The notes under the pieces: generated by a model | The model's input: the letters and a program-made list of their open reading frames with translations, nothing else | The model's database searches: none | What the model was told of the DNA's origin: nothing | Translations under genes and position numbers: made by a program | Assembly (NCBI GenBank): GCA_046539305.1 | Contig: JBKHHE010000001.1 | Span: 77,150-141,149 of the forward strand | DNA length: 64,000 bases | Direction: 5' to 3' | Source of the DNA: Candidatus Aenigmatarchaeota archaeon | GTDB taxonomy: Archaea; Aenigmatarchaeota; Aenigmatarchaeia; PWEA01 | In this document: piece after piece, positions 21,815 through 45,953 of the stretch | Layout of the letters: every line of letters starts with the position of its first letter | Position numbering within the stretch: the first letter of the stretch is position 1

Positions 21815-21822
21815 TTTAAATT
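21815..21822 (+). promoter_or_regulatory. TATA box (TTTAAATT) for the initiator tRNA gene
   Basis: The box ends 23 nt upstream of tRNA position +1 (21846). The same octamer and spacing occur upstream of the tRNA-Gly gene. Confidence 0.6.
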
Positions 21823-21845
21823 AGCTTCCGTTAAAGAATAGGGAC

Positions 21846-21967
21846 AGCGGGGTAGAGCAGCCTGGAGTCTTGAAACGTGGTTTCAAGTTTGGAAAGCCAC
21901 GCTTTCCAGAATGCTCGTCGGGCTCATAACCCGGAGGTCGGTGGTTCAAATCCACCCCCCGCTACCA
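21846..21967 (+). tRNA. initiator tRNA-Met (CAT) with a ~44-nt intron in the D-loop, encoded CCA
   Basis: AGCGGGG TA GAGC AGCCTGG[insert]AAT GCTC G TCGGG CTCATAA CCCGG AGGTC GGTGG TTCAAAT CCACC CCCCGCT A CCA. It has A1:U72 and three G:C pairs at the base of the anticodon stem. The D-stem halves are 54 nt apart. Confidence 0.85.
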
Positions 21968-29470: not shown

Positions 29471-29986
29471 ATGGTCGAGGAGCTACTTGGTGAAGTTTTG
29501 ATAGAAGGCACGGCACAGCCTTTCTTGCCTTTTTTCTTCGTCCTTGCAGTTGTTTTCGGTCTCCTGGAGATAGTCGATGTCTTCAAGAAGAACTCCGTGA
29601 ATCTGATTATCTCCCTAGTATTTGCCTTCTTTGCTGCTGGATATACACCTTTCGTGGAATTTTTCTTCCAGTACTTCAGTTACATACTCTGGACCTTCGT
29701 GGTACTTTTCTTCATCGCGTTCTTTCGAGAAGCTCTGGGTTTCAAGAGGTCTAAAGTCAAGAGCGGTGAGGAAAACCTGCTTATAATGATCGCAGGTTTG
29801 TTCCTGCTGTTATTGGTTAGTGTGGGGACCCAGTATATCCCCGAGCTTGACCTCCCAATTGCCCGGGAAAACCTGGTGATTTTCATGGGAACAATTCTAC
29901 TGGTCTTTATGTTCTTCTATGCCTTCAAGTTCCACAAAACGGTAGGCAAGGAAGCCGAGAAAAGGATACAAGAAAGAGGAGGCTAA
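29471..29986 (+). CDS. polytopic membrane protein, paralog 2 of tandem array
   Basis: 171 aa. PFLPFFFVLAVVFGLLE aligns with the FAYLLPWLLTLAVVFGLLE helix of the next gene. Confidence 0.6.
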   Translation: MVEELLGEVLIEGTAQPFLPFFFVLAVVFGLLEIVDVFKKNSVNLIISLVFAFFAAGYTPFVEFFFQYFSYILWTFVVLFFIAFFREALGFKRSKVKSGEENLLIMIAGLFLLLLVSVGTQYIPELDLPIARENLVIFMGTILLVFMFFYAFKFHKTVGKEAEKRIQERGG

Positions 29987-30032
29987 AGCTTAAATATCTT
30001 ACAGATGAACTAAAACGTGGTGAAGCGACTAC

Positions 30033-30515
30033 ATGATAGAACAGATGATTACAAACCTGGAGCAGGCCGGTGTCTTTGCATATCTTCTTCCGTGGCTGCT
30101 GACCTTGGCCGTGGTCTTCGGGCTTCTGGAGCACTATGAAATACCTAAATCGGTGTCGGCAAGAGGTGTAATCTCCATAGTGATAGCGTTCCTCGTTCTT
30201 CCGGCAGGGAACGCAGTAGCACCGTTCTTGGAGGGTCTCGTAAAGGGATTTATAGTTATAGCCTCGGGAATTCTCGTGACGATAATCTTTGTGGAGATGC
30301 TGGGATTCAAGGCGGGCGACGTGGAAAACATCTTCGAGAAACATCCAAGAAGCTTCGGTGGCATAATGATAATCTTGGCCATTTTGGTCTTCATTGGAGC
30401 AGGCGGTCTTGAAATTCTTGACGTGAGTTTTGAGGTGAGCCAGGAACTAATAACTTTGCTGTTTTTCCTTGCCGTAATTTCTATCGGCGGATGGTTCATG
30501 ATTTCGGAGGAATAA
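30033..30515 (+). CDS. polytopic membrane protein, paralog 3 of tandem array
   Basis: 160 aa. The motifs are FAYLLPWLLTLAVVFGLL, SARGVISIVIAF and a C-terminal LFFLAVISIGGWFMISEE. Confidence 0.65.
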   Translation: MIEQMITNLEQAGVFAYLLPWLLTLAVVFGLLEHYEIPKSVSARGVISIVIAFLVLPAGNAVAPFLEGLVKGFIVIASGILVTIIFVEMLGFKAGDVENIFEKHPRSFGGIMIILAILVFIGAGGLEILDVSFEVSQELITLLFFLAVISIGGWFMISEE

Positions 30516-30552
30516 ATATTAAAAGGTAAGCGATGATAAAATAAGTGGGAAG

Positions 30553-31116
30553 ATGAGTCCGGCACAGTTTCCAGGCGGAGCAACCGCAGACCTGTTAGGA
30601 GGGGAGTTCTTCGAATATGCGCTGCCCTGGCTACTGACCTTTGCAATAGTTTACGGGTTTCTGCAACACTACAAGGTACCGGAGTCCAAGTCGGCAAGAG
30701 GTGTAATTTCGATAGTCCTTGCCTTTTTTGTAATGCCCGCTGCTGCGCCTGTCATGTCTTTCCTCAGGGAAGTCGGCGCAGGTCTGGTTGTCATCGTTAC
30801 AGGCATAATATTTTTCCTGGTCCTGCTGGAGTTGACTAGGACCAAAAAACATCCAGGAGTTCAGGAACACCCACAGACAGGAGAGGAAATCGTACCAGAG
30901 GGTGCAAAAGGCGCAGATAGACAAAGCATAGTAGAGGCCCATCCCAAAACCTTTGGCGCTCTCGTGGTTATAATCCTAGTGGTTATACTCTGGGGAGCAG
31001 GGGGGTTTGAGATAATGGGACTGGGAGAGATTATACCAATGGTCAGCTGGCCCACGCTCTTTTTCCTGGCCGTGCTTGCGCTGGCCATCTGGTGGATGAT
31101 ATCGGAGAGTGAATAA
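30553..31116 (+). CDS. polytopic membrane protein, paralog 4 of tandem array
   Basis: 187 aa. The motifs are FEYALPWLLTFAIVYGFL, SARGVISIVLAF and LFFLAVLALAIWWMISESE. It shares an identical 18-nt stretch with paralog 3 and an identical 20-nt stretch with paralog 5. Confidence 0.65.
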   Translation: MSPAQFPGGATADLLGGEFFEYALPWLLTFAIVYGFLQHYKVPESKSARGVISIVLAFFVMPAAAPVMSFLREVGAGLVVIVTGIIFFLVLLELTRTKKHPGVQEHPQTGEEIVPEGAKGADRQSIVEAHPKTFGALVVIILVVILWGAGGFEIMGLGEIIPMVSWPTLFFLAVLALAIWWMISESE

Positions 31117-31683
31117 ATGACAGCAATTGGAATGCAGATGTATGAAGTTCCCGGGGATCTTGAAGGGATTTTTGGAGAGATAGGTGTAGAATTCTTCGCA
31201 TACGTTCTCCCGTGGCTCCTCACCTTTGCAATAGTTTACGGTATCTTATCCCATATTGGAAAAGACGGCCTTCCTGAAAGCAATCCTGCACGGGCAATAA
31301 TAGGAATAGTTCTGGCCTTTATAATAGCTCCTGCACTTTCGCCTTTTGTGCCGGCTTTAATGCAGTACTCGGCCGGATTTGTGATTCTCATCGCAGGGTT
31401 CCTGGTGTTTATTGTTTTACTGGAGGTATTCGGTATTAAGGCCAAAAAGCCTATAGTAGGCGACGAGGGTCCCACTGGCGAAAGTGAAGAGCTCTCCATA
31501 TTTGAAGAATACCCCAAGTTCTTCGCTTTCGTGATCGGCGTCCTGGCCTTGCTCGTATTCTTCGGTTCCGGGGCCTCAGAGGCTGCAGGGATAAACATAC
31601 CTTCGGGGATATCACAGAACTATCCGCTCCTGTTCTTCTTAGGATTTATGGTTCTTGTGGTCTGGTGGATGATCTCGGAGTGA
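31117..31683 (+). CDS. polytopic membrane protein, paralog 5 of tandem array
   Basis: 188 aa. The motifs are FAYVLPWLLTFAIVYGIL and LLFFLGFMVLVVWWMISE. Its ATG directly abuts the previous stop codon. Confidence 0.65.
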   Translation: MTAIGMQMYEVPGDLEGIFGEIGVEFFAYVLPWLLTFAIVYGILSHIGKDGLPESNPARAIIGIVLAFIIAPALSPFVPALMQYSAGFVILIAGFLVFIVLLEVFGIKAKKPIVGDEGPTGESEELSIFEEYPKFFAFVIGVLALLVFFGSGASEAAGINIPSGISQNYPLLFFLGFMVLVVWWMISE

Positions 31684-40259: not shown

Positions 40260-40425
40260 AGGAGTCACTTTTTTCGACCTGGAGACTACTGGAGGGAAGA
40301 TATTTGTAATCGTGGTGTTCCTCATAGCCCTGGCGTTTTTCCTCCTTTTCTTCCGGGAAAACATACAAACCATGATAGAGGAAACTACTGGAGAGCTGCT
40401 GGATGCGGACTGGTTTATGGGCTGA
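40246..40425 (+). CDS. mini-pilin-like protein
   Basis: TTG 40246 gives MTSSKG|VTFFDLETTGGKIFVIVVFLIALAFFLLFF...TGELLDADWFMG. The start is uncertain (GTG 40237 in the track). It overlaps the preceding gene. Confidence 0.45.
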   Translation: MTSSKGVTFFDLETTGGKIFVIVVFLIALAFFLLFFRENIQTMIEETTGELLDADWFMG

Positions 40426-40429
40426 TAAC

Positions 40430-40807
40430 ATGAAAACAAAAGGACAGAGTACCATGATGAAGTTCATAATAGGGATAATCCTAGCGGTCATCGTGGTCAT
40501 AGCTTTCGCACGGTTAATGTGGAGTTTTGATGTGGAGAAGGAGGCGCCAGGAAGCGCCCACGACGAATGTTTTGAGTTAACTTCCACGGAGACCAGCTGC
40601 AACGAGTTTTGTAATCAGAGGAACTCCAGCTGGACCTGCTCGACAGGCTGTGGGTTTGGCGCACAGGATGCTCAGGCAGTAGTTCATGGCAAGGGGGGCT
40701 GTGAAGGAGTGACGGCACTCCTCCTTTACGAGGACAACGCATGCACCCAAAGGTTAGAGGAAAAGAACATGAGGAAATCGGTCAAGTGCTGTTGTGAAAG
40801 TGAATGA
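40430..40807 (+). CDS. Cys-rich pilin-like protein (class III signal KGQ)
   Basis: MKTKGQ|STMMKFIIGIILAVIVVIAF. The ectodomain has 10 Cys and ends KCCCESE*. Confidence 0.65.
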   Translation: MKTKGQSTMMKFIIGIILAVIVVIAFARLMWSFDVEKEAPGSAHDECFELTSTETSCNEFCNQRNSSWTCSTGCGFGAQDAQAVVHGKGGCEGVTALLLYEDNACTQRLEEKNMRKSVKCCCESE

Positions 40808-40864
40808 TACTTTCACACCAACGCCCGGCGAGGCAGTCCTCTCTATAACGGCAATCATTTGACT

Positions 40865-41404
40865 ATGGAAACAGCAGAAGCTATCCCATCAACAAGACTG
40901 AAGTATATGGAGATTAGCGCTGATGAAGAAACAACCCTGATGGTAGAGTTTGACCGTAAAAATTTAAACCTCCCTGACGAATGTCTCTGTATGGACTCTC
41001 ATGGAGGAGCGATGCACTACGTGCTGCTTGCGGGAGTCGGAGGATTGATTCTGACGGCCGTCCTGCTCTCCGGTTACGGGTTAGTAGCTGGCAAGGCCGG
41101 TATGGGAATGGCACTGACCTCCGCCTCTCATATTGGCGGGGGGGCGGGAAGAGACATAAGCTTCATATTTTCTATCAACGAATCTGCAGAAATAGAAGGG
41201 GAGTTTCCGGACGAAGACTGCATCGTTCACCTGAAGGAGAGTCATACGACTGCTCGGAGTACTATACTGGATCAAACTGTGAACCAGACCTTTCTCTATC
41301 TTACAGAGGCCGAGAACCTTGACGAAGTGATAGAATGTGATGTGGACGAAACCAAGGAATACAAGATAACAAAGGAAGATGGGGTGGTAACCGTTGAAGC
41401 GTAA
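40865..41404 (+). CDS. single-TM protein of pilus locus
   Basis: An N-terminal region of about 50 aa is followed by the TM helix HYVLLAGVGGLILTAVLLSGYGLVAG and an acidic domain. The start is uncertain (the track uses TTG 40859). Confidence 0.45.
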   Translation: METAEAIPSTRLKYMEISADEETTLMVEFDRKNLNLPDECLCMDSHGGAMHYVLLAGVGGLILTAVLLSGYGLVAGKAGMGMALTSASHIGGGAGRDISFIFSINESAEIEGEFPDEDCIVHLKESHTTARSTILDQTVNQTFLYLTEAENLDEVIECDVDETKEYKITKEDGVVTVEA

Positions 41405-42209
41405 GGGGCAGGTCGAAAGCCCGTCGTGGTTGATAGGACCTCTGCTGATAATAGGTCTCTTCAGTATTTCCGTGGTTTTTATCGGCATCGCCTATAGCGA
41501 AACCGTCGCGAAAGTAGAAACCGGCGTCTCCGAGCTTGAAATCATGAATATGGAGAACAGGCTACTTTCATCGGAGAAATGTTTATCCACAGGAGAGCTG
41601 GGCGTCCTAGATAAAAACAGACTTGATGAGTTTAAAGAAAATAATTGCGACTGGGACCCTGCTAATCCCTGTGGACTGAGCGACTTTGAAGAGGGCGATA
41701 TAAGATGGGAATGTCCTGCGACTCCTTCCATCACCTACAGGGTTGAAGTCGAGGACCTTGAAACCGGAGAGGAGTGGATACTGGGCTCCGAACTTACGGA
41801 AAACTTGGAAGGAGAAAGGTTGAACGCTAGTTTTGAGTCCAAGAGGTCCGTGGCGATCAACACCAGCTCAGGGGTGAACCCAGGTAAGGCCACACTTTAC
41901 TTCCGAACGGCCCGGGAGGATCCCCTGCTCGCGGTGAGGAAACACGCTGCCAACGCTTGGGTCACGGGGAAAAGCAGAACGATAATTAAAAAGGAGGGGG
42001 ATAGCACATACATTGACTTCCCCGAGGAAGGGGTAATGAACCGTGGCCTGGGGGAGAACGTTTCTCATTGGAGACTACCCGCAAGGATCGGAGCAACAGG
42101 AGAAAAAATTAAATTCGTTCACACAGGCCCCGCCGTGGCCGGGGGAGAACGTTTATACGAGTTTAAAAGAGTGGAAGGTGAGATAGAAATAGATACGGAA
42201 GAGATCTAA
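41394..42209 (+). CDS. pilin-like protein (class III signal KGQ)
   Basis: The TTG start gives MKRKGQ|VESPSWLIGPLLIIGLFSISVVFIGIAY. 271 aa, with an acidic ectodomain. Confidence 0.6.
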   Translation: MKRKGQVESPSWLIGPLLIIGLFSISVVFIGIAYSETVAKVETGVSELEIMNMENRLLSSEKCLSTGELGVLDKNRLDEFKENNCDWDPANPCGLSDFEEGDIRWECPATPSITYRVEVEDLETGEEWILGSELTENLEGERLNASFESKRSVAINTSSGVNPGKATLYFRTAREDPLLAVRKHAANAWVTGKSRTIIKKEGDSTYIDFPEEGVMNRGLGENVSHWRLPARIGATGEKIKFVHTGPAVAGGERLYEFKRVEGEIEIDTEEI

Positions 42210-42220
42210 ACGTGATAAAA

Positions 42221-42712
42221 ATGAAAAAGGCCCAAGTTTTGATCATGGTGAACGTGGTATTTGCAGTAATCGCAGTGTTTTTCCTGATTATATTTTTAAG
42301 CGCCACAGGGTTCATGGAACAGCTGCCTGTTGTCGATTATCCCGAGCTAGAAATGCGGTTCGGGGAGCTGGTGGTGATTCCCAGAGAGGCTTCCGCCGAC
42401 ATCAACGCTTTTTTGAAGCTGTCCGAGAACGGAAACTCGATGAGAGAAGTGATAAGGGATTACCTGGTTTACGGGGAAGAGAAGGATTTGGATACACTTG
42501 AAGAAAATCTAAATAAACTTTTCACGATGAAAGAAGCTGTGCTGACAATCGGTGGTGAAAGTATAGAAAACGACGTAGAAGTGGATGTCTCCGAGGAAAG
42601 GGAAAAGGTCAGCGCGGAGGCGTCAAGAATCATCGCCTTGCCCGGAGGAAAGACAAAGAAAATAACTCTAAAAATAACACAGAGGCGGCCCGAATTTGGA
42701 GGTGGCGAATAA
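42221..42712 (+). CDS. pilin-like protein
   Basis: MKKAQ|VLIMVNVVFAVIAVFFLIIFL. 163 aa from ATG 42221. Confidence 0.55.
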   Translation: MKKAQVLIMVNVVFAVIAVFFLIIFLSATGFMEQLPVVDYPELEMRFGELVVIPREASADINAFLKLSENGNSMREVIRDYLVYGEEKDLDTLEENLNKLFTMKEAVLTIGGESIENDVEVDVSEEREKVSAEASRIIALPGGKTKKITLKITQRRPEFGGGE

Positions 42713-43864
42713 ATGATAGTTAAACAAAAGGAAGGAGCAGGAGCAGGTGCCGTTGTGGTGGTTGCCGCAGCGATTATAATTGTACTCAGTATTTTTATCT
42801 GGAACTTTATGACCGTGGCTATGGAGTTCGAGAGCCAGAGAGAGGTGACCCCCCTTACAGAGGCCAAGGGCCAGTTCGACAACCTCGACCACTTCACGAA
42901 CAGTTCCTTGTTCTTCTCGGAACACCGGGGAACCCTGAAAAACACTAACCAGGAGTTGGCAGGCACGGAGGAAATGACCTGGTGGGACAAAGGCGAGGAC
43001 AGGACTCCGGATGAGGACGAGTTCAGAGAGAACCTGACAGACGAAATATCTTTCTGGTGGGCCCGGGACTACTTCTCCGATTCAGATCAGAGGAATCTGA
43101 AAGAAGTGGACGTAAGGATAGATGATTACGAGCCTGTGGACGAAGGTTTTGTACTAAATTCGACCGCGGTCCCCGAAGCCATTGCCGAAGTGGAGGAGAG
43201 AAAAATAAAGGTCTACAACGAGAAGAACTACAGCCACGAGATCGACCTGAGACCTTTCCTTCTGAGGGAGGAGGGGGACGAGCTGACCGACAACATGGTC
43301 GACGAGGCCCTTGAACCTCTCTGGGAGGAGTTCGAGGGGGACGCAACAAAGGACGAGAGCACGGGGGAAAACACAGAGTGTGGAGATTGGCCCAGCTGGC
43401 CAAGTGCGAATCCTTCAACTGAGAGCAGTGTGAAAGGAAACTTAAACGACAAACTTGAAGATATATCCGGAGACATTCAAGGAGAATACGGCCCCGAGGA
43501 GCTTGGATGGTCCCTGAACATACAAGAGCTTGAGGAATTCAGTTCCAGCTCCGATGTAGTTAGTCAGGACGAAGACGACAGTGGTGATCCTTGTACCTGT
43601 AAAAACACAACCAGCGGCGATGAGATGTCCTGTGGAAACTGTGGAGAGATAGAAGAGTGTGAGGTAGAGGAAAGAATCCATACAAGGGAAAGGGACTTCG
43701 AGTACGACTACGAGGCGGCCCTGGAGATCGAGGCCGAGATAGAGGATGGAAACGAAGACTACGAGGTCTTGACCACCGACGGAGACGAGGTGCCTCTGGT
43801 GCTCCAGTTTTTGATAGATCCTGTGAGGTTCGACACCAAAGAAGGCAATCCCTACGAGGCCTGA
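42713..43864 (+). CDS. large acidic pilin-like/pilus-associated protein
   Basis: MIVKQKEGAGAGAVVVVAAAIIIVLSIFIW N-terminal helix. 383 aa, very D/E-rich, with a Cys cluster near the C-terminus. Its ATG abuts the previous stop. Confidence 0.55.
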   Translation: MIVKQKEGAGAGAVVVVAAAIIIVLSIFIWNFMTVAMEFESQREVTPLTEAKGQFDNLDHFTNSSLFFSEHRGTLKNTNQELAGTEEMTWWDKGEDRTPDEDEFRENLTDEISFWWARDYFSDSDQRNLKEVDVRIDDYEPVDEGFVLNSTAVPEAIAEVEERKIKVYNEKNYSHEIDLRPFLLREEGDELTDNMVDEALEPLWEEFEGDATKDESTGENTECGDWPSWPSANPSTESSVKGNLNDKLEDISGDIQGEYGPEELGWSLNIQELEEFSSSSDVVSQDEDDSGDPCTCKNTTSGDEMSCGNCGEIEECEVEERIHTRERDFEYDYEAALEIEAEIEDGNEDYEVLTTDGDEVPLVLQFLIDPVRFDTKEGNPYEA

Positions 43865-43915
43865 AATCCAATAATATTTAATAGCTCACAACAAAAAATA
43901 AACCGTGGTTCCGAG

Positions 43916-44449
43916 ATGAAGGAAAGGGGAGTAGCTTTATCGATTTCAACGCTGGTCGTTCTCGTTGCATTACTCGTAGTTATAGGTGGGGCAGCTGCTT
44001 TTCTGATCAGAGGTGAGGAATCGATGATAGATCCAGAATCCCAAATCTACAACCTGACGGAGTCGATCTCCCCGAGGTTCGCTGACATGATGTGGGGTGA
44101 AAAGGAGGAAGACCCAGACTGTGTAGAATGTCAAGACGACGATCATTGTCCTTCTAGGAATTACGAATGTAACGATGACAACTTATGCATAATTCCAGAA
44201 GATCAGCAGGTGGAGGCTGGACTTGGTTGTCAACCGGAGGGTGATTATGGATGTTACGGGGCTTGTGAACCATATTCTCGGGAAGGGACTTGTTATCATG
44301 GAAGTCAATGTAAAAATTTTGGAACTAGTGCTGACCCTGATTGCAGATGTGAGTGGGAGGAGGAAGATAATGATAGACCTTGTTGCCCTGCCGATGATGA
44401 AGTACCTGACTGTACGGGAGCTGGGTGGGACGGCTGCAAAACTATATAA
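43916..44449 (+). CDS. Cys-rich pilin-like protein (class III signal)
   Basis: MKERG|VALSISTLVVLVALLVVIGGAAAFLI. The ectodomain carries many Cys (CVECQDDDHCPSRNYECNDDNLC...). It has its own AT-rich box about 30 nt upstream. Confidence 0.65.
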   Translation: MKERGVALSISTLVVLVALLVVIGGAAAFLIRGEESMIDPESQIYNLTESISPRFADMMWGEKEEDPDCVECQDDDHCPSRNYECNDDNLCIIPEDQQVEAGLGCQPEGDYGCYGACEPYSREGTCYHGSQCKNFGTSADPDCRCEWEEEDNDRPCCPADDEVPDCTGAGWDGCKTI

Positions 44450-44545
44450 AATAAATAAAAATATCAATCCGTGAAATAAAAAAAGTATATTGCTATTAAC
44501 ACTCGTCCTCTAAACCTTAAAAACCAGGAAAAGTATATCCTTTGT

Positions 44546-44830
44546 ATGCTGCGAGAAAACGGGAAAGGGGACATATCCCTTTCAATCCGCACCGTTATGC
44601 TTATGTCTCTTGGGTTAATTGTCTTGATTGGGCTTATCATGATATTCACCGGAGGCCTTGATATCGGACTGGACCTGACCGACTGTGATGCCGCAATCGA
44701 GAAAAACTGCGGTACGTACGTGGCCAACGGTTGCTGCGACGAGGGCAACAGCTGCACCGAGGTCGTGGCTGATTTCGACCTTCCTGATAAGTGCACCGAA
44801 CCCAGTGACTGGTCGGAAAGGTGCTGCTAG
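44546..44830 (+). CDS. Cys-rich pilin-like protein (class III signal)
   Basis: MLRENGKG|DISLSIRTVMLMSLGLIVLIGLIMIFTGGLDIG. It has 8 Cys and ends SERCC*. Confidence 0.65.
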   Translation: MLRENGKGDISLSIRTVMLMSLGLIVLIGLIMIFTGGLDIGLDLTDCDAAIEKNCGTYVANGCCDEGNSCTEVVADFDLPDKCTEPSDWSERCC

Positions 44831-44864
44831 GCCGGGAATAAACACTCTTTCTGAAGAAATGGAA

Positions 44865-45081
44865 TGGTGCGCCTGCCGGGAGTTTCAGAAACCAAGTTTT
44901 TGATGGAACTTTTTCTAAAAGTTTCTTTTGAACCCGGGTTGCGAGCACTCTCCGACCTTTTTCTTTTCGTGGACGTTTTGCGAACGTAGTGAGTAAAAGG
45001 TCCTGGGAGGCTCGAGTCTTACCTGAAGTGCGCGACCAGTTCCCTCACGCAACTCTCTAGGCCAGACTAGACCACAGGCGC
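44865..45081 (-). tRNA. tRNA-Gly (CCC) with three introns (D-loop, 37/38, 59/60), encoded CCA
   Basis: Exons 45081-45062, 45021-45004, 44947-44927 and 44881-44865 join to GCGCCTG TG GTCT AGTCTGGTA AGAC T CGAGC CTCCCAT GCTCG CAAC CCGGG TTCAAAT CCCGG CAGGCGC A CCA. Strict bulge-helix-bulge motifs flank the second and third introns. Confidence 0.88.
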
Positions 45082-45103
45082 ACGCGTTATTTTGTTCATT
45101 TCT

Positions 45104-45111
45104 AATTTAAA
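45104..45111 (-). promoter_or_regulatory. TATA box (TTTAAATT on minus strand) for tRNA-Gly
   Basis: The box ends 22 nt upstream of tRNA position +1 (45081). It is the same octamer and spacing as at the initiator tRNA gene. Confidence 0.6.
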
Positions 45112-45113
45112 AA

Positions 45114-45953
45114 TTATTCGAAGTCCATGCAGGTCCTTCCGTAGTGGAAGAGATATTCGTGGGCGTAACCCGCGTACCTCCCGAAGTAGTCTCTCATTTT
45201 TTCCGAGGTTTCGTCGTAGTTTCTGCCGTTCAGTTCTGGATACTTCTCCTGGATGACTTTCCACATCCAGGTGTCTATGGGAAACGCCTGGAGGAAGTCC
45301 AGGGAAAACAAAAGCACGCAGTCCGCGACCTTGTCTCCCACGCCCTGGAGTTTCATCAACTCCTGCTTGGCTTCTTCGTACTTCATTTTCTTAATATTTT
45401 CTGTCCTGATTTCGTTCTCGGCTACCATCTCCGAGGTCCGCTTTACATAATCGGCCCTGTATCCCAGGCCTAGATCCTTTAGCTCCTCCAGCGGGACTTT
45501 TGATAGCCTTTGGGGTTCAGGAAACTGATGGTAGATTTCACCTTCAAGCTCCAGATTTTTCCCGTGTCTCTCGGCAAGCTGATCCTGAATTTCCTTGATC
45601 CGTGGAATCTGCATCTGCGCCGAGGTTATGAAAGAGATCAGGCAGTGGAAGAACTCGTCGTTTATTATTCTGAGGCCCCTGTTTTCCTGTATAGCTTGAG
45701 AAACAAAATTGTCCTTTGATATTTCTTCGCAAATTTCCTCCAGGGGGTCACCAATACGGAGAACTTCAGCTGGATCTATCCTGTTGCCATAGTTTTCGTA
45801 GAAGAGTTTGTCATCTTCCTGCCAGACCTTGAGCAATCCACCGTTCCGGATGGTGTAGTATTTTTCTCCGTCCCTGTGCCAGAAGAAGGTCTGCCCGCAC
45901 TCCAGCGTTTTTTGCAGGTCGAACGGTTCTTCAAGTTTTATTTTTCTCGGCAT
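45114..45953 (-). CDS. ogg: 8-oxoguanine DNA glycosylase / HhH-GPD N-glycosylase-lyase
   Basis: LMKLQGVGDKVADCVLLFSL is the HhH-GPD hallmark, followed by FPIDTWM. 279 aa. Confidence 0.8.
   Translation of the reverse strand: MPRKIKLEEPFDLQKTLECGQTFFWHRDGEKYYTIRNGGLLKVWQEDDKLFYENYGNRIDPAEVLRIGDPLEEICEEISKDNFVSQAIQENRGLRIINDEFFHCLISFITSAQMQIPRIKEIQDQLAERHGKNLELEGEIYHQFPEPQRLSKVPLEELKDLGLGYRADYVKRTSEMVAENEIRTENIKKMKYEEAKQELMKLQGVGDKVADCVLLFSLDFLQAFPIDTWMWKVIQEKYPELNGRNYDETSEKMRDYFGRYAGYAHEYLFHYGRTCMDFE

Follow-up and report, generated by a model that had tools for sequence, protein, structure and literature searches.

We analysed a 64,000-nt stretch of DNA (64 kb; contig JBKHHE010000001.1, positions 77,150 to 141,149 of the forward strand; hereafter the window) from an archaeal metagenome-assembled genome (MAG) labelled 'Candidatus Aenigmatarchaeota' at NCBI, whose relatives include the genome PWEA01. 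On the minus strand of the window, at 44865-45081, lies a 217-nt locus made of four exon pieces and three inserts, which is very probably a functional tRNA-Gly(CCC) gene with three removable introns, present in single copy in a halophilic DPANN archaeon. All coordinates and sequences given for this locus in an earlier reading of the same DNA (the original prediction) are correct. The exon pieces measure 20, 18, 21 and 17 nt and the excised pieces 40, 56 and 45 nt; joined, the exons give GCGCCTGTGGTCTAGTCTGGTAAGACTCGAGCCTCCCATGCTCGCAACCCGGGTTCAAATCCCGGCAGGCGCACCA (76 nt), which ARAGORN calls as tRNA-Gly(ccc) over positions 1-76 with every stem fully paired, in agreement with the perfect cloverleaf and CCC anticodon that had been proposed.

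Read along the minus strand, exon 1 (45062-45081; GCGCCTGTGGTCTAGTCTGG) holds the 5' strand of the acceptor stem, U8-G9, the 5' strand of the D stem and the D loop up to G19. It is followed by intron 1 (45022-45061, about 40 nt), which interrupts the D loop between G19 and A21 with relaxed pairing and a junction placed to within +/-2 nt. Exon 2 (45004-45021) contributes U20-A21, the 3' strand of the D stem, nucleotide 26, the 5' strand of the anticodon stem and nucleotides 32-37 with the anticodon CCC. Intron 2 (44948-45003, 56 nt) occupies the canonical 37/38 site and lies within a strict helix-bulge-helix-bulge-helix (hBHBh') motif, CGAGC-CUCC-[CAG]-GACC...GGUC-GGAG-[AGU]-GCUCG. Exon 3 (44927-44947) runs from nucleotide 38 through the 3' strand of the anticodon stem, the variable loop CAAC and the 5' strand of the T stem to T-loop nucleotides 54-59, where intron 3 (44882-44926, 45 nt) is inserted at 59/60 in a second strict hBHBh' motif, CCGGG-UUCA-[AAA]-GAAAC...GUUUC-UGAA-[ACU]-CCCGG. 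Exon 4 (44865-44881) completes the gene with nucleotide 60, the 3' strands of the T and acceptor stems, A73 and an encoded CCA (44867-44865). As had been claimed, cutting after the second nucleotide of each bulge in these two motifs regenerates the anticodon and T loops CUCCCAU and UUCAAAU.

The joined exons are arranged as GCGCCTG TG GTCT AGTCTGGTA AGAC T CGAGC CTCCCAT GCTCG CAAC CCGGG TTCAAAT CCCGG CAGGCGC A CCA, a cloverleaf with stems of 7, 4, 5 and 5 bp whose anticodon and T loops have 7 nt each. By inspection, U8, A14, G15:C48, G18G19, U33, T54T55C56, A58, G53:C61 and A73 are all present, and A21 is retained under every candidate D-loop junction except the GGC+AGAC variant. The archaeal/eukaryal-type identity set for glycine, as defined by studies of glycyl-tRNA synthetase, comprises A73, C2:G71, C35 and C36. 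All of these occur in the join, together with G1:C72 and G3:C70. The minimum-free-energy (MFE) fold of the 217-nt precursor (-77 kcal/mol) contains the 7-bp acceptor stem and three arms, each lengthened by an intron helix. In a spliced product of 73-76 nt the predicted junction reads are GGUAAGAC, CUCCCAUGCUCG and UUCAAAUCCCGG.

Default callers miss this gene, as the original prediction anticipated. ARAGORN reported 0 tRNAs in the unspliced 64-kb window and none on the precursor in its intron mode, while Rfam gave 0 matches at gathering thresholds and, in a scan of 44700-45250 at E<=10, only two chance miRNA matches. Such a failure of standard models is to be expected when a gene has three introns, and is no argument against its tRNA identity. 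Nothing in Rfam matches the introns themselves, and inspection by eye showed neither C nor D boxes in them. The assertion that 44831-45113 contains no credible open reading frame (ORF) also stands: the gap holds only short overlapping ORFs, the longest of which (100 aa, 44646-44948) has 2% D+E against about 20% in the real genes of the window and is foreign in composition to this very acidic proteome. The same 283-nt gap is likewise left without a gene in public annotations of this DNA (L014, 3841-4123).

The two strict motifs were recovered independently of any tRNA model. A scan for bulge-helix-bulge (BHB) motifs that was ignorant of tRNA structure (its criteria were a 4-bp helix, each strand of which is followed on its 3' side by a 3-nt bulge, and helices on the flanks) found junctions identical to those proposed, namely (78,134) at 37/38, with 56 nt, H helix CTCC/GGAG paired at 4/4, h = 5 bp and h' = 8 bp, and (155,200) at 59/60, with 45 nt, H helix TTCA/TGAA paired at 4/4, h = 5 bp and h' = 6 bp. 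Two further matches in the gene have flanking helices of only 2 bp. Since three intron positions and lengths could be chosen freely, the search space is huge, and a cloverleaf join on its own would be weak evidence for a gene. That the cloverleaf is merely a chance join of four pieces picked by eye is nevertheless scarcely credible, because the tRNA-blind scan picks the same junctions, because these exon sequences are found again in 13 public contigs from related organisms, from which individual inserts are missing, and because a simple split-tRNA scan of the whole window on both strands returns this gene, an initiator tRNA gene described below, one overlapping artefact and nothing else.

Covariation was assessed on BHB cores trimmed by the analyst (stem, H, bulge and five inner pairs per side) in small sets of five to eight related sequences. 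The 59/60 motif is paired in 95.5% of cells (eight genes), and four of the five pairs in its h' helix change on both sides; 11 cells of this inner helix are changed on both sides, a number reached by 0 of 500 shuffles, and the pairing collapses when the partners are slid by one column. The 37/38 motif is paired in 92.9% of cells (six genes). One of its changes is found in L018, a three-intron orthologue on a Logan contig of SRR10589506 (tRNA gene at about 2095-2349), in which the D loop is shorter (AGUGG...) and the 3' strand of the D stem is AGAU. Its anticodon loop, CCCCCAA, has C33 for the near-universal U33, and the intron compensates with GGGG: the U33:A pair is replaced by C33:G in a double change, and the central helix, now CCCC/GGGG, is still paired.

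An exact search with the 20-nt exon 1 recovered one locus in each of six GTDB species-representative genomes and seven metagenome contigs, making up the 13 public contigs. All six genomes are MAGs labelled 'Candidatus Aenigmatarchaeota archaeon'; the isolate names are of the T1Sed10/B1Sed10 type in five and D1M06 in one. We take the T1Sed10/B1Sed10-type names to denote soda-lake sediment MAGs. Ten distinct orthologous genes could be distinguished, namely that of the window, L001-L006, L010, L018 and the partial L017, in addition to the 5' end of a further gene, L022. The gene upstream of the tRNA in the window (45114-45953, minus strand) encodes an OGG/HhH-GPD DNA glycosylase, and the tRNA lies near an OGG gene in every fetched locus that reaches far enough. 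These OGG proteins are 54-69% identical to that of the window, which makes the loci orthologous, at roughly genus-to-family distance. The additional OGG homologues L021 and L023 have no tRNA beside them.

Intron content varies over this orthologous series. L006 possesses only the 59/60 intron; L002 and L005 combine it with the 37/38 intron, and L001 and L003 with the D-loop intron; all three introns are found in the window, L004, L010 and L018, while L017, whose contig is cut short, has at least the D-loop and 37/38 introns. The 59/60 intron occurs in all nine complete orthologous genes with varying sequence and a length of 32-95 nt; over the whole set the introns span 32-103 nt or more and differ in sequence. 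Where the 37/38 intron is absent (L001, L003 and L006) the gene reads straight through as CTCCCATGCTCG, and where the D-loop intron is absent the loop is likewise uninterrupted (GGTAAGAC in L002, GGCAAGAC in L005, GGTAGGAC in L006 and GGTA in L022), in both cases as the splice model predicts. L022 has the OGG closest to that of the window (69%), and its contig ends after the first 20 nt of the gene, in which the D loop starts intron-less as AGTGGTA.

The exons, in contrast to the inserts, are nearly constant. All of the eight spliced products tested (8/8) are called as tRNA-Gly(ccc), and their exons differ only at nucleotides 20, 22, 44 and 46 and in the 3' tail; L017 and L018 show a few more differences, for example at nucleotides 16, 25, 33 and 38. 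The encoded CCA is real in the window, as had been stated, but reads CTA in L001, L010 and L018 and TCA in L004. It is therefore not conserved among the orthologues and no required feature of the gene.

Near-constant exons combined with variable inserts indicate that the gene is under strong selection and that the inserts are removed from the RNA, which we take to rule out chance as well as pseudogene decay. It could be argued that the locus is a decaying pseudogene whose function is served by an intact tRNA-Gly(CCC) elsewhere or by a wobble-reading tRNA-Gly(UCC), given that standard callers reject the locus and that GGG is in principle readable by tRNA-Gly(UCC). We regard this as very improbable. 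Decay in relatives was looked for and none was found: the exons are nearly invariant in ten orthologues despite flanking proteins at 54-69% identity, inserts occur at three defined sites only and keep their BHB geometry through compensatory changes, all conserved tRNA nucleotides are intact, and each related GTDB genome has one exon-1 locus. The anatomy of the gene, its BHB geometry, its conservation and covariation and the presence or absence of introns in relatives are direct observations, and with the canonical spliced product, the two strict motifs and the intron-less orthologues they support the functional gene that the original prediction had proposed.

The locus is not an assembly artefact, since the same tRNA gene is present in three independent assemblies, identical or with 1 single-nucleotide polymorphism (SNP). 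The window OGG is 100% identical to one in GCA_046545755.1, and the tRNA gene was found also in runs SRR21542052 and SRR19844286. The SNP, at window position 44904 relative to L014/L015, lies inside intron 3 (GTTCCATC vs GTTTCATC), and all exons are identical.

Another locus, L008 (AGBK01000456.1, 1-151, minus strand), has an identical exon 1 and an intron-less D arm (GGTAGGAC), after which the sequence diverges and is rich in hairpins. It carries a CTTTTACTCA module like that of the 37/38 intron family and resembles one more tRNA gene broken up by many inserts, one of which may lie in the anticodon stem; the end of the contig truncates it.

The D-loop insert differs from the other two. Its orthologues in L001, L003, L004, L010 and L017 have conserved ends (CCTAGAGA...CTTTGGG) and a variable interior, with lengths of 34-65 nt, and two mutually exclusive helices each fit all of them. 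The first (S1) is an intron-terminal hairpin, CCUAGAG/CUUUGGG, which is 98% paired, with one G:C to A:U compensation in L010 and an A.C mismatch in the window. The second (S2) pairs D-loop nucleotides 16-19 (UCUGG) with the last five nucleotides of the intron, followed by the 3-nt bulge CCU, and is 100% paired; it is stronger in the window, which has U-A and G-C for U.G and G.U, and in L017, which has C-G. The two pair counts, 98% and 100%, come from a small set of five sequences. S1 is the more stable helix by 3-9 kcal/mol in five of six orthologues; its margin shrinks to 0.7 kcal/mol in the window. With S2 a relaxed form can be drawn in which the D stem leads through an internal loop (3x3 or 2x2) to the helix between UCUGG and the 3' end of the intron, followed by the bulge CCU and a short h', and in which the predicted junction is shifted by 1-2 nt; S2 with a cut at a 1-nt bulge would yield GGCAAGAC, which is the D loop of L005. 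The original prediction had described this intron as having relaxed pairing only, and the TCTG/CAGG helix that it named is indeed present. In our view the insert is a non-canonical intron whose motif is relaxed and whose junction is placed to within +/-2 nt.

Three other arrangements of this region were considered and discarded. A mirror-image bulge arrangement has the wrong handedness for a BHB; pairing of the conserved CUAGA in the intron with the 5' strand of the D stem (UCUAG) as part of a BHB would excise G18G19; and an outer helix AGUCU/AGACU, which the MFE fold contains and which draws on the GUCU repeat, yields no BHB.

Several points weigh against a gene with three removable introns. 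The single-copy count comes from six GTDB genomes, and the source genome is known here from its 64-kb window. Transcription and splicing are predicted from DNA sequence. A tblastn search with a possibly imperfect sequence of EndA (splicing endonuclease) from M. jannaschii and a regular expression for the catalytic motif gave no match in the window or in the fetched loci, which is a weak negative. The remaining points concern the D-loop insert, for which no strict BHB compatible with the junction GG-CC...GG-UA (hyphens marking the cuts) exists in any register, by hand or by script. Its preferred fold, a plain hairpin from whose base both junctions emerge, is no known geometry for an EndA substrate, and the BHB-like S2 is 0.7-9 kcal/mol less stable and, with the usual ruler, gives a D loop longer by 1 nt (GGCC+AAGAC).

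These features of the D-loop insert also suggest a different account, in which the two BHB introns are real and the D-loop insert is handled otherwise, either at a shifted EndA junction or as no EndA substrate at all, being retained as a hairpin or cut by another nuclease. With a shifted junction, the 5' cut would fall two nucleotides after G19 and the 3' cut one nucleotide before the D stem, producing the D loop AGUCUGGCCA, or GGCAAGAC if the cut is at a 1-nt bulge. Such a shift is favoured by the S2 helix, which pairs in every cell and is stronger in the window, in which the competing helix gains its A.C mismatch. With S2, exon 2 would begin exactly 1 nt short of the stem, which is also the case at 37/38 and 59/60. 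The D-loop intron of the initiator tRNA gene in the window, moreover, has a clean motif of the S2 type (CUGG/CCAG, h of 3 bp) and no intron-terminal helix. On the other side, the intron-less orthologues L002, L005, L006 and L022, including the closest relative, read GG-U/C-A, which matches the originally proposed junction exactly and is one nucleotide shorter than the product of the ruler; the intron-terminal helix is the more stable one in most orthologues and has its compensatory change; and retention of a hairpin fits poorly with an insert that comes and goes among orthologues with identical exons. We know of no precedent for a 34-65-nt hairpin retained in a D loop. On balance this account is plausible, if short of probable. 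The models differ in their expected D-loop reads, which are GGUAAGAC for the originally proposed junction and GGCCAAGAC or GGCAAGAC for the shifted ones. Relaxed motifs with 1-4-nt or missing bulges are described as known substrates of (alpha-beta)2 and epsilon2 enzymes (PMC3239211) and as suspected substrates of the L3-loop alpha4 EndAs of DPANN (PMC5829648), and D-loop inserts such as this one can reveal relaxed substrates accepted by DPANN EndA.

Returning to the gene with three removable introns, a putative TATA box, TTTAAATT (45104-45111, minus strand), lies 22 nt before +1, where such a box had been noted, within the 10-mer TTTAAATTAG (45111-45102), and overlaps the stop codon of OGG. 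From this TATA-like element, about 26 nt upstream, a 217-nt precursor may be transcribed, in which the acceptor stem would form and each of the three arms would be extended by an intron helix. EndA would then cut both 3-nt bulges of the strict BHB motifs at 37/38 and 59/60, and would also cut the D loop between G19 and A21 through a relaxed motif, after which a ligase of the RtcB type would join the four exons into a 73-nt tRNA with its CCA.

Even with one mismatch allowed, TTTAAATTAG has only two copies in the window, and the other one (21815-21824) stands 23 nt upstream of a second hidden tRNA gene, a tRNA-Met(CAU) of the initiator type at 21846-21966 on the plus strand, which also escapes ARAGORN and Rfam. 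This gene has the acceptor stem AGCGGGG...CCCCGCU with A1:U72, the anticodon stem UCGGG/CCCGG, the T loop TTCAAAT and an encoded CCA. An insert of about 44 nt directly follows G18G19 in its D loop and is associated with a relaxed helix-bulge-helix (hBH) motif, CUGG/CCAG, with the bulge AAU, a 3-bp outer helix and no helix of the S1 type.

Kinship among the introns was evaluated by comparing local alignment scores with those of 300 shuffles. Intron 3 of the window (59/60) aligns with intron 2 of L010 (37/38) in 29/32 columns (z=11.0), intron 2 of the window (37/38) with intron 3 of L004 (59/60; z=11.6), and intron 2 of L004 with intron 3 of the same gene (z=10.4); in each comparison 0/300 shuffles scored as high. 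These similarities indicate that a single sequence family, homologous across positions, includes the introns of both the 37/38 and the 59/60 site. The D-loop introns form a separate family. Between the window and L002/L005, a core of about 40 nt in the 37/38 intron (CCUUUUACUCAC..CGUUCGCAAAACGUCCACGAAAAG; CCTTTTACTCAC..CGTTCGCAAAACGTCCACGAAAAG) shows 84-87% identity, whereas that of OGG is only 54-61%. One speculative reading is that the core itself is selected, perhaps because the excised RNA has a function or because a mobility or processing factor recognises it. In L004 the module recurs at 59/60, and L018 carries a version with an internal insertion. The module shows no obvious stable structure, has no Rfam match, and has no other copy in the window (<=3 mismatches) or in the fetched loci beyond the Gly gene.

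Judged by their distribution and similarity, the introns behave as insertions that are dispensable and mobile in evolution. A stronger version, in which an active mobile intron family moves between anticodon-loop and T-loop sites and is gained and lost on a genus-to-family timescale, with a core selected for its own sake and D-loop introns cut through a motif outside BHB, hBH and HBh', is speculative and in our view rather unlikely. The eleven related loci with one, two or three introns, together with the homology across positions, make up a compact system for studying intron gain, loss and movement.

Most ORFs in the window encode strongly acidic proteins (D+E about 17-27% vs K+R about 7-17%), which fits a salt-in halophile; the hypersaline, soda-lake-type origin is attributed from the isolate names of the relatives. 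PWEA01 names a phylum-level GTDB lineage that is grouped with Nanohaloarchaeota and Aenigmatarchaeota inside DPANN (PMC9765267). Elsewhere in the window, four tandem paralogous genes for small hydrophobic proteins with the common N-terminal motif ..LPWLLTLAVVFGLLEH.. occupy 29471-31683 on the plus strand. Just downstream of the tRNA gene, at 40403-44830 on the plus strand, lies a run of genes for acidic cysteine-rich proteins with N-terminal hydrophobic segments, two of which have no Pfam match.

The type of gene described here is already known in archaea, and the accepted picture of archaeal tRNA splicing is unchanged by it. Our literature searches returned no description of tRNA introns in this lineage. 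That archaeal tRNA genes may have one, two or at most three introns, placed at canonical as well as non-canonical sites, is established (PMC3239211, PMC4090602), as is the occurrence of 59/60 introns and multi-intron tRNAs in archaea including DPANN (PMC3239211, PMC5829648). DPANN genomes are reported to hold disrupted tRNA genes missed by predictors, and their incomplete tRNA sets under standard prediction have been attributed to unidentified disrupted genes (PMC5829648). What is new is that the known maximum of three introns is reached in a mesophilic or halophilic DPANN lineage, having been documented mainly in Thermoproteales before; the original prediction had allowed for 'a few reduced archaeal genomes' besides that group, and a halophilic DPANN host fits this clause. 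Further value lies in the orthologous series of varying intron content, the homology of introns across positions and the pair of D-loop introns with non-strict motifs. Because both the Gly gene and the neighbouring initiator tRNA gene are unannotated, estimates of tRNA complement and completeness for such DPANN MAGs will be too low, a kind of shortfall already suspected for DPANN tRNA sets (PMC5829648).

The closest parallels in intron number are found in Thermoproteales, whose genes likewise have up to three BHB-type introns at 37/38 and non-canonical sites and are missed by ordinary callers. Position 59/60 is a major intron site in Thermoproteales, and their multi-intron tRNA genes were reportedly found by Sugahara et al. 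(2007, 2008; cited in PMC4090602 and PMC3239211) through SPLITS and related searches. The present host, however, is a halophilic DPANN archaeon with an acidic proteome from soda-lake-type samples and not a hyperthermophilic crenarchaeon; EndA of Thermoproteales is an (alpha-beta)2 enzyme with a Crenarchaea-specific loop. Closer in taxonomy are ARMAN-2 (Ca. Micrarchaeum acidiphilum) and other DPANN, which belong to the same superphylum and are described with introns at 59/60 and several other positions in both strict hBHBh' and relaxed hBH motifs (PMC3239211; PMC5829648). The intron locations of ARMAN-2 overlap the major insertion sites of archaea with (alpha-beta)2 enzymes (PMC3239211). The ARMAN-2 examples given there have one or two introns per gene (e.g. 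53/54+59/60), in contrast to the four orthologues with three introns found here, and EndA is epsilon2 in ARMAN-2 and alpha4 with an L3 loop in other DPANN.

A eukaryotic nuclear tRNA gene with introns in the same three arms has been described and shares this layout, with eukaryotic machinery and no evolutionary link implied. Transposition of tRNA introns in Thermoproteales is said to have been reported by Fujishima et al. in 2010 and to involve many different tRNA genes within a genome. Similar introns at different positions are common to that process, as summarised in PMC4090602, and to the genes studied here; unlike the transposition in Thermoproteales, the similarity that we observe lies within one orthologous gene across genomes.

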